From contig JALNYU010000017.1 in assembly GCA_023229645.1 (NCBI GenBank), positions 13,659-77,658 on the forward strand: a stretch of DNA of 64,000 nucleotides, written 5' to 3'. Positions 4,575 to 64,000 of this stretch are shown here, piece by piece. The position numbers and the translations under genes are program-made. Below the pieces are notes generated by a model that ran no database searches, was not told the DNA's origin, and saw only the letters and a list, made by a program, of their open reading frames with translations. Each line of letters begins with the position of its first letter. The first letter of the stretch is position 1. Source of the stretch: Nevskia sp. (GTDB lineage: Bacteria; Pseudomonadota; Gammaproteobacteria; Nevskiales; Nevskiaceae).

Positions 4575-4928
4575 CTACCTCATCTTCCGCAGCGCGCGTA
4601 CGTCGATCGAATCCGGCTTGATGAAGTCTTCCCAGGCGGGCATTTGGTCGGCGTAGCGTTCATCGCTGGCGAGCATGGTGTGGAGGATGCGCATGGCGTC
4701 CATCATTTGGTTGATGCGTTCTTCGCAAGCTTCGTTGCGGTAGTAAAGGCGGTAGGCGAGCCAGCCGACCATCATCAGCACTAGCAGCATGAAGATGAGC
4801 GTGGATGCCGGGCTTGAGACGACGGTGGAGGCGACATCGACCCAGCCTTTTACTTGTTCGGCGGTGATCATCACGGCGGCGGCGCCGGCGCCGGCGGCAA
4901 CGGTTCCGGCGATGTTTTTCGGGTTCAT
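4575..4928 (-). CDS. Phage membrane protein downstream of the spanins (holin-like candidate)
   Basis: 117 aa with two hydrophobic segments; 4-bp overlap with the o-spanin stop. Confidence 0.6.
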   Translation of the reverse strand: MNPKNIAGTVAAGAGAAAVMITAEQVKGWVDVASTVVSSPASTLIFMLLVLMMVGWLAYRLYYRNEACEERINQMMDAMRILHTMLASDERYADQMPAWEDFIKPDSIDVRALRKMR

Positions 4929-59497: not shown

Positions 59498-60244
59498 ATG
59501 CGGATCTTATTGTCGAACGACGACGGTTACACAGCCCCCGGGCTGCTGTGCCTTGCAGAATATTTACGCCGAGAGCACCAGGTTGATGTGGTGGCGCCGG
59601 ATCGCAACCGTAGCGGCGCCAGCAACTCGCTGACGATCGTCAACCCGCTGCGTTTGCAACGGCAGCCGGACGGCACAATCTGTGTTGACGGCACGCCCAC
59701 CGACTGCGTCCATTTGGCGCTAACCGGTCTGATCAAAGAAACGCCGAATATGGTTGTTTCCGGCATCAATAACGGCCCGAATTTGGGCGATGACACGCTC
59801 TATTCCGGCACGGTTGCCGCGGCGATGGAAGGCCGCCATCTTGGCTTTCCGGCGATCGCCGTATCGTGCAATTCGCACGACCCGAAGCACTATGAAACCG
59901 CCGCGCAAGTGACATTGCGGTTGGTCGAGCGGCTGCGCCAAGAGCCGCTACCGGGCGATACGATTTTGAACGTCAACGTGCCGGACGTGCCGTTCGAGGC
60001 CTTGAAAGGCTACGAAGTAACGCGGCTTGGCAATCGCCACCGCTCCGAACCCGTTGCTGAAGCGCTAGACCCGCGCGGCCGGCCGATTTACTGGATCGGT
60101 GTTGCCGGTGCCGAGTCTGACTTCGGGCCGGGCACGGACTTCCATGCGGTTGCCAACCAGCGCGTGTCGATCACGCCGCTGCTGGTCGATCTCACACGTC
60201 ACAGCCTGCTCGACCGGCTCGGTGCCTGGGCTAAGGCACTGTGA
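59498..60244 (+). CDS. surE: 5'/3'-nucleotidase SurE
   Basis: LSNDDG, GTPTDCV, SGINNGPNLG, YSGTV. Confidence 0.96.
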   Translation: MRILLSNDDGYTAPGLLCLAEYLRREHQVDVVAPDRNRSGASNSLTIVNPLRLQRQPDGTICVDGTPTDCVHLALTGLIKETPNMVVSGINNGPNLGDDTLYSGTVAAAMEGRHLGFPAIAVSCNSHDPKHYETAAQVTLRLVERLRQEPLPGDTILNVNVPDVPFEALKGYEVTRLGNRHRSEPVAEALDPRGRPIYWIGVAGAESDFGPGTDFHAVANQRVSITPLLVDLTRHSLLDRLGAWAKAL

Positions 60245-60924
60245 CGGCAGGCGTGCATCCGCACAGCCGCGGTCTCGGTTTAACCTCCCCGGTGAGCCGG
60301 GCGCGGATGATCGACGAACTGCGGCAGCAGGGCGTTTCCGATGAGCGCGTACTGGCGGCGATGCTGAAAATCCCGCGCCACGAGTTCGTTGAAGAAGCCT
60401 GGCGCGGCGAAGCCTACCGCAGCAAATCGCTGCCGATTGGCTTGGCCCAAACGCTATCGCAACCGTATGTCGTCGGCTTGATGACGCAGCTGCTGCTGGA
60501 ACCCTCGGCGGAATGCGCGGCGCGCAAGAACGTGCTCGAAGTTGGTACCGGCAGCGGTTATCAGACGGCGGTGTTGGCGGAAGTGGTGGAGCGGGTATAT
60601 TCGGTCGAGCGTTTGAAGGCTTTGTCCGAAATCGCGCGAAACCGCCTGCAGGGGTTGCGTTACCGCAACGTGCATTTCGGTTACGCCGACGGTACCGCCG
60701 GCTGGGCGGCGCACGCCCCGTACGATGCGATCATCGTCACCGCTGCTGCCAGCGAAGTGCCCAAGGCGCTGCAGGAGCAGTTGGCGCGCGGTGGGCGGTT
60801 GGTGATCCCCGTCGGGCCGCCGAATCAGCAGGTGTTACGGGTAGTGGACCGCGTTGGCGCGCGCTTTCAAAGTCGCGATGTCGCCGCCGTTAGCTTCGTG
60901 CCGCTGCTCGAAGGCAAGGCCTGA
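60241..60924 (+). CDS. pcm: Protein-L-isoaspartate O-methyltransferase
   Basis: QTLSQPY, LEVGTGSGYQ, PYDAIIVTAA. Confidence 0.95.
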   Translation: MTAGVHPHSRGLGLTSPVSRARMIDELRQQGVSDERVLAAMLKIPRHEFVEEAWRGEAYRSKSLPIGLAQTLSQPYVVGLMTQLLLEPSAECAARKNVLEVGTGSGYQTAVLAEVVERVYSVERLKALSEIARNRLQGLRYRNVHFGYADGTAGWAAHAPYDAIIVTAAASEVPKALQEQLARGGRLVIPVGPPNQQVLRVVDRVGARFQSRDVAAVSFVPLLEGKA

Positions 60925-60935
60925 GCGCACAGCCC

Positions 60936-61526
60936 ATGCAGGTTTTTCAAGATTGGCTGGCGTTGTGGCTTGCGCAAATTGGCTACCTCGAAATTTTTCT
61001 GTTGATGGCCTTGGAGTCCAGCCTGTTTCCGGTGCCTTCGGAGCTGGTGATGATTCCCGCTGGCTATCTCGCAAAAACCGGCAAACTCGATCCGGCGCTG
61101 GCAATCGCGGCAGGTGGCGCTGGCTCCTTACTCGGCGCCAGCTGCAATTACCTGCTCGGTCGCTATGTTGGTCGCGCGTTTCTGCTCCGTTACGGCAAGT
61201 ATCTGCTGATTAATGCAGACAAATACCACGAGGCCGAGGCGCTCTTTCTGCGCAATGCCTATGTGGCTACATTCGTCGGCCGGCTATTGCCGGTGGTGCG
61301 CCATCTGATCTCCATTCCCGCCGGCGTGTTCGGCATGCAGCCGTTATCGTTCGCCGCGATCACGCTAGCCGGTGCCACGCTGTGGTCGGCAATACTGGTT
61401 GCTGCCGGTTATTATTTCGGCGAAGCCGCAGTCCAGGTATTCAGCCGCTATACCCATGAGTTGACACTCGCGGTAGTCGCCGCAATCGTCGCTTTTGGAA
61501 TCTGGTTTCTATTCCGAAAACGCTGA
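60936..61526 (+). CDS. DedA family membrane protein
   Basis: ESSLFPVPSE, GRLLPVVRHLISIPAG. Confidence 0.9.
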   Translation: MQVFQDWLALWLAQIGYLEIFLLMALESSLFPVPSELVMIPAGYLAKTGKLDPALAIAAGGAGSLLGASCNYLLGRYVGRAFLLRYGKYLLINADKYHEAEALFLRNAYVATFVGRLLPVVRHLISIPAGVFGMQPLSFAAITLAGATLWSAILVAAGYYFGEAAVQVFSRYTHELTLAVVAAIVAFGIWFLFRKR

Positions 61527-62356
61527 TGTATAGATCTGCAAGGATGCTATATACAAGGCGTCGAACAGGTGGCTTAGCGCTCGCGTGTGTGACTGCCTTG
61601 GTGCTGGCTGCGTGCAGCACCCCTGGGCCAGAACCGGCTACCGGCAAACATTCTGCAGTCGTAAGCCGGCAACCCACGCCGAGCAAGCCGACCTACGGCG
61701 AAACCTATGTTGTTTCCCGTGGCGATACGCTCTATTCAATCGCGTTCCGAAATCAACTCGACTACCACGACCTCGCCGATTGGAACGGCATCGGCCGCGA
61801 TTATCTAATCGTGCCTGGGCAAGTGCTGCGACTCTCGCCACCGGGGCGCTCGCCGTTGCCAGGCTCCGTTCCAGCGCCGACTAGCGCCAGCACCTCACCG
61901 CAGATTCGTAAAGTTTCGCCGCCCCCAGCGGCCGTAGCGTCGGCCCCCGCCGCGAAGGCGGCCACCAACGAAGCGATCAGCACGGCGTCCGGCGAATGGG
62001 AATGGCCAACACGCGGTGAGAATCTACTGCGGAAATTCGATGCCGACGGCAACAAAGGCCTCGATATCGGCGGCGAACTGGGGCAGATCGTCATCGCCAG
62101 CCGCAGCGGCAAAGTGGTGTACAGCGGCAGTGCATTAAAAGGCTACGGCGAGCTGATCATCATCAAACACGATGAAGACTATCTCACCGCCTACGGCTAC
62201 AGCCGGCGCCGCCTTGTTATGGAAGGCGACACCGTAGCCGCCGGCCAACCCATCGCCGAACTCGGCCTCGGCCCCGAACAAAGGCCGCTGCTACATTTTG
62301 AAATCCGCAATAAAGGCCGGCCGGTTGATCCGTTGGCGTTGCTGCCAAAGCGCTAA
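61526..62356 (+). CDS. nlpD: LysM/M23 lipoprotein NlpD
   Basis: Lipobox LAAC, LysM (GDTLYSIAF), M23 (NKGLDI, LHFEIR). Confidence 0.9.
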   Translation: MYRSARMLYTRRRTGGLALACVTALVLAACSTPGPEPATGKHSAVVSRQPTPSKPTYGETYVVSRGDTLYSIAFRNQLDYHDLADWNGIGRDYLIVPGQVLRLSPPGRSPLPGSVPAPTSASTSPQIRKVSPPPAAVASAPAAKAATNEAISTASGEWEWPTRGENLLRKFDADGNKGLDIGGELGQIVIASRSGKVVYSGSALKGYGELIIIKHDEDYLTAYGYSRRRLVMEGDTVAAGQPIAELGLGPEQRPLLHFEIRNKGRPVDPLALLPKR

Positions 62357-62427
62357 CAATTTGGATGAGGGTGGGGCGGTGCTATGAGAATGGCTTTTCC
62401 CTAAAATTTGGACTAACAAGAACACCG

Positions 62428-62814
62428 ATGAAGACCCGGATTTTATTTCTACTGGCCGCAATCGCACTACATGGCTGTGCTGCCCATCCAGTTGCCAATC
62501 CTCCAGCACGTAAAACAGTCGGATACTATGATCAGCTAACGCATATCATCGCAGCTGGCGTCCGCTACCCAAGCAGGGCTCTGTTGGCAAATGAGCAGGG
62601 GACTTGCATTGTAAAAGTTGCCCTGCGTCGAGACGGGACGCTGATCAGTGCTGAAATTACGCAGTCCGCTGGATATGCGGATTTAGATCGGGAATGTCTG
62701 GCGGCGTCGCGCCGTGTTGACAAGTTCCCCGCTTTTCCAGAAAGCGTCTCGACTGAAATCGAAGAATTTATATTCGAGATGCCAATGAAATTTTCATTGC
62801 CTTCCGCCAAGTAA
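62428..62814 (+). CDS. Lipoprotein with a stand-alone TonB C-terminal domain
   Basis: LHGC lipobox; YPSRAL..EQG..V....DG......SAGY..LD..L. Confidence 0.75.
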   Translation: MKTRILFLLAAIALHGCAAHPVANPPARKTVGYYDQLTHIIAAGVRYPSRALLANEQGTCIVKVALRRDGTLISAEITQSAGYADLDRECLAASRRVDKFPAFPESVSTEIEEFIFEMPMKFSLPSAK

Positions 62815-62835
62815 TAATCAAGCGATTTGTATCGA

Positions 62836-63064
62836 GGCTTGATCCGCCTAACTTGACCTCAAGTTTATTAGCAAATGCCTTGGGCGCTCCCAGGTGCCCG
62901 CTGTCGAGCTGACTCAAATGCGGTAATTCATCGGCTACGATGTGTAACGCTACTCGGATCTAAGCGGCTGTAGCATTTCACCGGCTTTTGCCTTTCGGCT
63001 TGATCACACTGATTGTTTTACGCTGAATACAAAACACTCTGCGACCCAGTGAAGGCCGTTAGAT
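62836..63064. other. Unassigned highly structured non-coding element
   Basis: At least six short hairpins, a 9-bp direct repeat, attC-like core ends; no ORF in the track. Confidence 0.45.
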
Positions 63065-63084
63065 AGCAAGATAGTGCAGCGGGT

Positions 63085-63441
63085 TTATTTTAGCGCTTCA
63101 AATAACGTAAGTTTAATCGCGCGCTGTCCGATGGAATTATCGACAGACTTGCGATAGAAAACGCATAGGGCAAGATTCTGAGTATTGGCCGCGACGTTTA
63201 AATCAGTAGCCAGATGCGACAAGAACGCCTCAACCGCAGGCGCCCCCAACGTTCGGGGATGCTGTTTTCCATGAAAGAGAATAAAACGCCGAATCCAGTG
63301 CAGGTAGGAATCTTCCGTACGCAGGCTGTAATGCAACGCCCGAATGAGTGCCCGGACCTGCTCCAGCAACCGGGGCGATTGCGCTGCTGATACGTCAGCT
63401 GACGTATAATCCTGGAATTTTGACGCGTTTTCTGGAATCAT
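63085..63441 (-). pseudogene. intI: Truncated integron integrase (N-terminal domain only)
   Basis: PRLLEQVR..HYSLRTEDSYLHWIRRFILFHGKQHP..VEAFLSHLA..NVAANTQNLAL; homology ends near YRK and the catalytic RHRY domain is absent. Confidence 0.9.
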
Positions 63442-63520
63442 AAGCTTGTTTCCAAAAGACTTTTATGTGAAGGCCAACGGATTATACGTCGAGTTTTATG
63501 TCAGAGTTATATTTCAAAGT

Positions 63521-63541
63521 GATATCTAATTGGCGTTAGCC
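63521..63541 (+). other. attI site (core GTTAGCC at 63535-63541)
   Basis: ATCTAATTGGC-GTTAGCC upstream of divergent intI; core complementary to the cassette R'' GGCTAAC. Confidence 0.75.
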
Positions 63542-63544
63542 ATT

Positions 63545-63892
63545 ATGAATGATCGGCCACCCCTTAATGGGGCTGAAGCTGAGGCAAGAAAATCACTTGT
63601 CGCCACCGTCCGCGCAATGCTTTCTGGAGAGCTTCCGTATGTTGAGGGCGCAGTTCAGGTGCTTCGCCTTAAAGCTCAAGTCGGCGGCGTCGGGGATCAC
63701 GATAAGGACTTCAACGCCTTTGTTGCTATCGCGTCAGAGACTGATCACCTACCTTTGGAAGCTCAGCGTCATTTGTGGGCACCCGAAGCGCTAGCGCGTT
63801 TGGAGCCGGAACTTGAAAAAACACAGAAGTGGGCAGCGTCCTTTGCCCCTGCAGCATGCGCAAAACTTGCTGCTCGGTTCAGCCATGGCTAA
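63545..63892 (+). CDS. Integron cassette ORF, DUF2489-like
   Basis: RAMLSGEL..VEGA..V....F..IASETDHLP...R..W; stop lies inside attC R''. Confidence 0.65.
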   Translation: MNDRPPLNGAEAEARKSLVATVRAMLSGELPYVEGAVQVLRLKAQVGGVGDHDKDFNAFVAIASETDHLPLEAQRHLWAPEALARLEPELEKTQKWAASFAPAACAKLAARFSHG

Positions 63893-63973
63893 CCCGGCGC
63901 TCAACCCCGCTCCTTTCAGTCGCTGGACGCTGCGCGATAAAGCCGCGCATCGCCGGTTAGCTCTACGTTGGGC
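63887..63973 (+). repeat. attC site (87 bp); the second cassette begins at 63968
   Basis: R'' GGCTAAC, L'' GCTCAACC, L' GGTTAGC, R' GTTGGGC. Confidence 0.93.
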
Positions 63974-64000
63974 ATCCAAAGCAGCGAGTTCCGGAGTTCA

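Follow-up and report, generated by a model that had tools for sequence, protein, structure and literature searches.

Strain-specific DNA in place of most of an integron integrase gene at the nlpD locus of Nevskia sp.

The most likely reading of a 229-bp stretch beside a truncated integron integrase gene (intI) in Nevskia sp. is that it is ordinary non-coding DNA, from the end of an 808-bp patch that is specific to the strain and lies over most of intI. The stretch occupies positions 62836-63064 of the window, by which we mean the whole 64,000-nucleotide piece of contig JALNYU010000017.1 that was analysed, and a preliminary description had singled it out as an unexplained multi-hairpin element located where intI is cut short. 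A discrete element of that kind is not a real feature of this DNA. Very probably, the 229 bp are the middle of a 350-bp non-coding tail belonging to a foreign patch of lower GC content, which replaced the spacer next to nlpD together with codons 93-340 of intI. The replacement and both of its breakpoints are observed in the comparison with a closely related metagenome contig that retains the intact gene.

Replacement of intI codons 93-340 at the nlpD locus

The genes in this part of the window are arranged in the order surE, pcm, a DedA-family gene, nlpD (+ strand), a lipoprotein gene (+ strand), a 350-bp spacer, the intI remnant (– strand), attI and the cassettes. The features that the argument needs are the following.

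61526-62356, + strand: nlpD, encoding a lipoprotein with LysM and peptidase M23 domains (Pfam); the last gene common to relatives, with its stop codon at 62354-62356
62357-63164, no strand: 808-bp strain-specific patch, which replaces 1058 bp of the metagenome contig L038; GC about 49%, against 60% for the window
62428-62814, + strand: orphan small lipoprotein gene with a TonB_C domain (Pfam TonB_C, 2.6e-12); signal peptide ending LHGC; alternative start at 62365
62815-63164, no strand: tail of the patch, 350 bp, GC 47%, between the convergent lipoprotein gene and intI remnant
62836-63064, no strand: flagged stretch, 229 bp, with short stems, a single 9-bp direct repeat and a pair of heptamers resembling attC cores, none of them beyond chance level
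62850-62865, + strand: hairpin AACTTG-ACCT-CAAGTT followed by TATT, present in the MFE and centroid structures, 36 nt past the stop of the lipoprotein gene
63085-63441, – strand: open reading frame of the intI remnant, 118 aa, matching Pfam PF13495 (N-terminal SAM-like domain) alone
63442-63537, + strand: attI region as far as the G|TT crossover (GTTAGCC at 63535), conserved in at least seven copies in the genome, which diverge right after it
63887-63973, + strand: genuine attC of the first cassette, used as positive control; 58.3 bits with the covariance model R1; covarying R''/R' and L''/L' pairs

The 118-aa frame is a fusion. Codons 1-92 (63165-63441) are true IntI, positions 63088-63164 are read as 26 foreign codons (93-118) joined to them, and the stop lies at 63085; the catalytic domain is absent, and the NCBIfam integron-integrase model TIGR02249 is matched at its positions 1-79 only. 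When a longer copy of this IntI was used as query, full-length relatives of 340 aa were found at 96-97% identity. An intact IntI of 340 aa with both domains, P0003, is encoded on the 3.6-kb metagenome contig L038 (JGI 3300073658, Ga0633753_018105) together with pcm, the DedA-family gene and nlpD, and the remnant in the window is 92% identical to it over residues 1-92, with no identity thereafter. Neither the 118-aa fusion nor the lipoprotein has an exact-product record.

Comparison of L038 with the window by BLAST gave two aligned blocks, with 96.0% identity over 60187-62356 and 97.1% over 63165-63547. Between these blocks L038 carries 1058 bp, made up of a 312-bp spacer between nlpD and intI and of intI codons 93-340 (the last 248), and the window carries 808 unrelated bp (62357-63164). 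On the left, the homology with L038 stops exactly after the stop codon of nlpD; on the right, the homology of intI is lost at 63165 (codon 92), both against L038 and in the alignment of the intI copies of this genome. The preliminary description had placed the flagged stretch at the truncation of intI, but the break lies about 100 bp to the right of 63064, and the intI frame itself runs on to 63085. The unexplained DNA is therefore 62815-63164 and not 62836-63064, and the 229 bp are not a bounded unit but a part of this 350-bp non-coding stretch, in which positions 62815-63084 contain stops in all six frames. The loosest of the earlier suggestions, a link between this DNA and the loss of the 3' end of intI, does hold, in that the 808-bp segment stands where L038, 96-97% identical, has the spacer and intI codons 93-340; the more specific parts of the same interpretation (a non-coding RNA, a cassette or attC, an insertion into an attC) all failed, as detailed below. 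Searching the rest of the genome for the lost spacer and the 3' third of this intI gave nothing, so the two were deleted and not translocated. We also looked for leftover 3' sequence of intI within the patch, and this candidate was rejected: TBLASTN with the IntI of contig C14 gave nothing past residue 94, and BLASTN against the ancestral segment of L038 gave nothing in the patch.

The left junction is backed by L041, an independent metagenome contig of the same strain that spans it and is 100% identical over window positions 60361-62639, and the right junction (63164/63165) is known from this assembly alone. The right junction could in principle be an assembly chimera, formed where integron copies of 98-99% identity collapse, so that the tail would not truly abut intI. 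The genome does contain at least seven near-identical copies of the intI 5' end with attI, nearly all of them 0-5 kb from contig ends, which indicates that the assembler struggled there. However, the sequence enters the shared repeat at a unique position, 63165, and differs on both sides of it; chimeras usually form at the boundaries of repeats and not inside a repeat at a position that no other copy shares. With the left junction independently confirmed and the genome rated 100% complete with 0.27% contamination, the right junction is almost certainly not such an artefact.

Two further metagenome contigs, L039 and L040, are like L038 in carrying an intact 340-aa integrase of the window's intI family at this nlpD locus. 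The sequence of L038 breaks off about 10 bp beyond the attI crossover, which would fit a population whose members differ in the first cassette. On the retained side of the break, at 63392-63410 and within intI codons 11-17, a TATAAT without mismatch on the + strand, directed toward attI and the cassettes, shares positions with a perfect 14-nt palindrome, ACGTCAGCTGACGT. Of the six other aligned copies, all keep the TATAAT intact and five the palindrome, which has one mismatch in the C41 copy. Judged by this sequence, the two are candidates for a cassette promoter and its operator; a –35 element matching the TATAAT was not found, and the promoter scan made no call there.

Where the patch came from was approached through searches for copies and for a donor. 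Its GC content falls from the 61% of nlpD to 51% in the lipoprotein gene and 47% in the tail. The preliminary description had proposed BLASTn for dispersed copies; none turned up. Neither the tail nor the complete patch has a second copy in the genome (BLASTN at word sizes 7 and 11, TBLASTX); the tail had no match in 40 relatives or in a set of 187 genomes of the order; and the plasmid and phage collections matched neither patch nor tail. An exact 27-mer of the tail had no match among metagenome contigs, a probe that misses copies of about 96% identity roughly two-thirds of the time. A search of 5.8 billion proteins with the lipoprotein at E≤1e-10 returned itself only, and its best relative in the genus is 44% identical and encoded at other loci. 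Scanning genome contigs with the lipoprotein gene gave one irrelevant partial match, and scanning metagenomes gave L041 only, which ends inside the gene. We also considered that the tail might be an rpoS leader or another conserved remnant downstream of nlpD, and rejected this: in the two annotated genus relatives, G014 and G006, nlpD is followed by unrelated genes, for RND efflux and for a TonB-dependent receptor. In front of the lipoprotein gene, in 62358-62418, CTAAC+AATTTGGA (62353-62365) recurs with the order swapped as AATTTGGA+CTAAC (62405-62417); the left junction of the patch falls within the first of these, and the recurrence may be chance.

As for the mechanism of the replacement, we infer the following course. 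The ancestral state would have been that of the close strain, with an intact 340-aa intI 312 bp from nlpD at the pcm-dedA-nlpD locus. The 808-bp patch, carrying the orphan TonB_C lipoprotein gene and the DNA downstream of it, would then have taken the place of the spacer and intI codons 93-340, most likely in a single illegitimate replacement (deletion plus insertion) or else by insertion followed by deletion, and probably not through the integrase's own recombination chemistry. The flagged stretch would be non-coding 3' flank brought in with the lipoprotein gene, and the right-hand 80 bp of the tail supply the intI remnant with 26 chance codons and a stop. No GTT, the signature of the integrase, was seen where the patch meets intI on the right, nor where the other truncated copies break off. 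On the left, the – strand reads G|TTAGCG across the junction, with no attC beside it. Inspection by eye showed neither inverted repeats at the two ends of the patch nor a duplicated target site. With no integrase signature, no inverted repeats or target duplication, and no second copy of the patch, an illegitimate replacement is the simplest reading. A two-event alternative, in which the ancestral order was nlpD-lipoprotein-intI and separate deletions occurred in two lineages, is less parsimonious and leads to the same conclusion about the tail. Because the catalytic domain was lost, the cassette array can be rearranged only by an integrase supplied from elsewhere.

The tail might instead derive from a mobile element, as an IS end or a MITE left behind after an insertion with an adjacent deletion had removed the 3' end of intI. 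Another truncated intI copy, on contig C13 at about position 4789, directly abuts an IS3-like transposase fragment, so that IS-mediated damage to intI appears to happen in this genome. But the tail and the patch are each present once by both BLASTN and TBLASTX, the inverted repeats and target-site duplication that such an element should leave were not seen by eye, and the patch has no transposase-like frame. We regard this origin as very unlikely.

Motifs and folding of the flagged stretch

The individual motifs reported for positions 62836-63064 are real. All six stems lie at the coordinates that had been listed, the 9-bp direct repeat is GGCTTGATC and occurs at 62836 and 62997, the heptamers GCCTAAC and GTTAGAT, which resemble attC cores, lie at 62846 and 63058, and no ORF of 40 aa or more is contained entirely within the stretch, as claimed. 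What did not stand is the step from these motifs to an element: their counts do not exceed chance, and their location at the truncation was wrong. Five perfect stems of at least 5 bp were counted in the flagged stretch, compared to 2.84±1.66 in shuffles, and a fraction of 0.16 of the shuffles reached five. A direct repeat of 9 bp or more was seen in 19% of shuffles of the 350-bp spacer. The one mildly unusual item is the RYYYAAC...GTTRRRY pair, which appeared in 3.5% of the shuffles of the same spacer. The lesson is that a run of 5-7-bp stems together with two attC-like heptamers lies within chance for 230-350 bp of DNA.

Folding gave the same picture when measured against dinucleotide shuffles. 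For the 229 nt, the + strand MFE had z = -0.76 and the – strand MFE z = -1.69, and for the 350-bp spacer (62815-63164) the values were -0.78 and -1.59. Both strands are thus within the range of the shuffles, the comparison that had been proposed as a way to refute a structured RNA, and in 100-nt windows slid along both strands the lowest z was -1.93, with none reaching z<-2. The MFE structure of the + strand has an ensemble frequency of 0.0007, and its centroid retains just a few small hairpins. We further ran Rfam 15 (cmscan with permissive filters, E≤10) on both strands of 62300-64000. The Infernal search on both strands, another of the checks proposed earlier, matched no family in the flagged stretch; the single match in the region, at 62665-62690, lies outside it and is a chance match.

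These results bear on whether the stretch is a lineage-specific structured non-coding RNA or ribozyme, as the earlier interpretation had it. There is some material for this idea: several short stems, including a GNRA-type tetraloop on the – strand, the – strand z of -1.69, which is on the low side, and a position between convergent genes, where small RNAs can reside. Against this, the stretch matches no Rfam family on either strand, its folding is like that of shuffled sequence in every window, the + strand ensemble is not dominated by its MFE structure, consensus scans for promoters and terminators found no signal bracketing it, and no collection searched contained a homologue in which conservation or compensatory changes could show. 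For a lineage-specific RNA, this lack of homologues counts only as absence of evidence. Two of the three outcomes that the preliminary description had named as refuting its reading, no homologues or covariation and folding like shuffled controls, were thus observed. Taken together, the absence of Rfam matches, the shuffle-like folding and the absence of homologues make a structured RNA or ribozyme here extremely unlikely. Ordinary non-coding DNA remains the preferred reading, and within it one small structure deserves mention: the hairpin at 62850-62865 with its T-rich run is the only candidate, and at most a weak one, for a terminator of the lipoprotein gene transcript, although it fails the criteria of the terminator scan. 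The tail (62815-63164) has no demonstrable function of its own; we infer that it lacks one, and any function it does have would be incidental at most.

The ribozyme-like lead can also be set against group IIC-attC introns, which are structured RNA elements found at integron recombination sites (PMC7923331). They are what that lead would correspond to, but the flagged DNA has no group II intron match in Rfam, is too short at 229-350 bp, and offers no attC for such an intron to enter.

Comparison with attC sites and gene cassettes

The two heptamers had been noted as fitting attC cores 219 bp apart (62846-63064), longer than typical attC sites. They do fit the R'' (RYYYAAC) and R' (GTTRRRY) consensus and are placed in the inverse orientation that an attC requires, GCCTAAC at 62846 and GTTAGAT at 63058. 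The likeness ends there. Attempts at scoring attCs by gapless scans overlooked real sites that carry bulged bases, and gapped arm scoring and a covariance model were therefore used instead. The candidate arms are complementary over CTAAC/GTTAG only, with a gapped arm score of 5, compared to 9 for the attC of the window and 7.5-13 for attCs of other arrays. The bipartite R''-L''/L'-R' palindrome with extrahelical bases that defines an attC is missing, and the ends at 62846 and 63058 are unpaired in the MFE structure. The flagged stretch also lies on the wrong side, beyond the 3' side of intI and opposite to attI (63442-63537) and the cassettes. At 219 bp, it is longer than attC sites usually are (57-141 bp).

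The covariance model, R1, was built from eight aligned attCs out of the arrays of this genome, and its alignment has the canonical R''/R' and L''/L' helices, an extrahelical position and six pairs with compensatory changes. With filters off, R1 gave at most 6.5 bits (E about 3) anywhere in 62815-63164 on either strand, and no match there spanned both cores. The same model gave 58.3 bits for the attC of the window at 63887-63973, and on other arrays it recovered 21 attCs at 23-71 bits, 13 of them outside the training set (23-54 bits). The sites outside the training set include seven beside the different, intact integrase on contig C14, as well as sites 102-123 nt long. Since 13 attCs outside the training set were recovered, R1 is not over-fitted. 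On three of four defining features, then, the assignment of 62846-63064 to the attC sites is rejected: the core consensus is present, and the pairing of the arms, the model score, which is at the level of noise, and the position in the array all speak against it. An ORF-less cassette or oversized attC falls on these same points, and the suggested insertion into an attC falls with it, there being no attC to interrupt.

ORF-less cassettes and cassette-borne small RNAs share with the flagged DNA a few hundred bp of non-coding sequence in the neighbourhood of an integron. The flagged DNA differs from them in that it is not bounded by attCs, does not lie downstream of attI in the array, and has no sign of structure or conservation.

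The patch as a whole might nevertheless be a gene cassette, consisting of the lipoprotein ORF and a decayed or oversized attC at 62846-63064, that the integrase inserted in or beside its own gene, with a deletion thereafter. The patch is cassette-like in having one small orphan ORF, a lower GC content and a size of about 0.8 kb; the core-like heptamers are correctly oriented, begin 32 nt past the stop codon and, as a pair, are the 3.5% event of the shuffles; and the left junction reads as a G|TT site on the – strand. Some attCs of this genome are indeed long, 102-123 nt when measured with the model and 153-190 nt when judged by arm pairing, and the insertion of cassettes outside att sites is documented (bioRxiv 10.1101/2022.09.11.507474). 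On the other side, the arms pair over 5 nt only, scoring 5 where real attCs score 9-13; R1 stays at or below 6.5 bits on either strand, without a core-spanning match, though it recovers 13 attCs on which it was not trained; and the MFE structure leaves the two ends unpaired with each other. Between the supposed R' at 63058 and the right boundary of the patch, which has no GTT, lie a further 106 bp, and there is no attC at the left end. The capture of a cassette at such a non-canonical site is very improbable here. A fuller version of it, in which a lipoprotein cassette was captured inside intI and thereby inactivated the integrase, and the 219-bp stretch is a long attC that decayed once it could no longer recombine, is extremely improbable. 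If it were true, capture of a cassette by an integrase in its own gene might exemplify the process that left at least nine intI remnants in this genome cut at different points.

Sites longer than usual were met elsewhere in these arrays. A long attC-like site lies beyond the end of the window on contig C10 (about C10:78970-79160), where GGCTAACCCTTCC...GGAAGGGTTATCG are about 190 bp apart with 13-nt perfect arms, and two paralogous arrays have 153-nt attC-like sites with well-paired arms (C13:351449-351601 and C42, about 125806-125958). This genome thus holds attCs that are either oversized or interrupted, with sites of 153-190 nt by arm pairing. The second cassette just past the end of the window (C10:77770-78560) encodes a protein that appears TIR-like by the motif DVFISHASEDKEEIVRPLAQAL... 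(by eye).

Inactivated integrons and intI remnants in this genome

With an IntI-specific N-terminal domain beside attI, a missing catalytic domain and genuine attCs downstream, the locus has the make-up of an inactivated chromosomal integron. Inactivated integrases of sedentary chromosomal integrons, truncated or pseudogenised, have been catalogued with IntegronFinder (PMC4889954) and described in Xanthomonas (bioRxiv 10.1101/2025.06.18.660453), and the integron of the window is an ordinary member of this group. It resembles them in having an intact attI, genuine attC cassettes and an intI without the catalytic domain, with an array that is frozen barring an integrase from elsewhere. It differs in that the ancestral state is directly visible, in the 96-97% identical contig L038, and in that the damage is a replacement of 1058 bp by 808 bp with an orphan lipoprotein gene rather than a frameshift, stop codon or inserted IS.

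The window copy is one of about ten integron front ends (the 5' part of intI with attI) in a genome of 4.26 Mb, in which one intI is intact and at least nine are remnants. Every one of these copies retains attI and no fewer than 39 intI codons. The intact gene (C14:44246-45190) belongs to a different family, 47% identical to that of the window. The remnants lie at C13:4785-5557, C13:348695-348907, C29:5244-5534, C42:1029-1299, C42:128783-129028, C41:133716-133933, C35:23077-23361, C1:124137-124427 and C31:199740-199931, with the window copy at 63165-63537. Among the copies of the window's intI family, seven could be aligned; they have attI in common up to the same G|TT crossover, followed by different cassettes, and keep about 39 to 215 intI codons, each cut from the 3' end at a different point. 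Three further remnants (on C35, C1 and C31) are more divergent and match the intI model from position 1 to between 64 and 97. The copies adjoin different housekeeping genes, almost all at 0-5 kb from a contig end, and three of them are 98.4-99% identical to one another, closer than the 97% between the window copy and L038. No fragment consisting of the 3' part of intI only was seen in the genome, and similar fragments with the N-terminal part only occur in three other species of the genus. The longest remnant, with about 215 codons, abuts what by eye is an IS3-family transposase fragment (C13:4600-4790; ...DLHARRVVGWSMS...); if the identification of that fragment is right, one or more of the intI truncations in this genome are associated with an IS.

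For the biology of this organism, the flagged stretch itself matters little, being unremarkable junction DNA, and the multiplied integron front ends that surround it in the genome are of more interest. The useful result is the reconstruction of how an integrase was lost: a related strain keeps the intact gene, and here a clean replacement of 1058 bp by 808 bp has taken its place.
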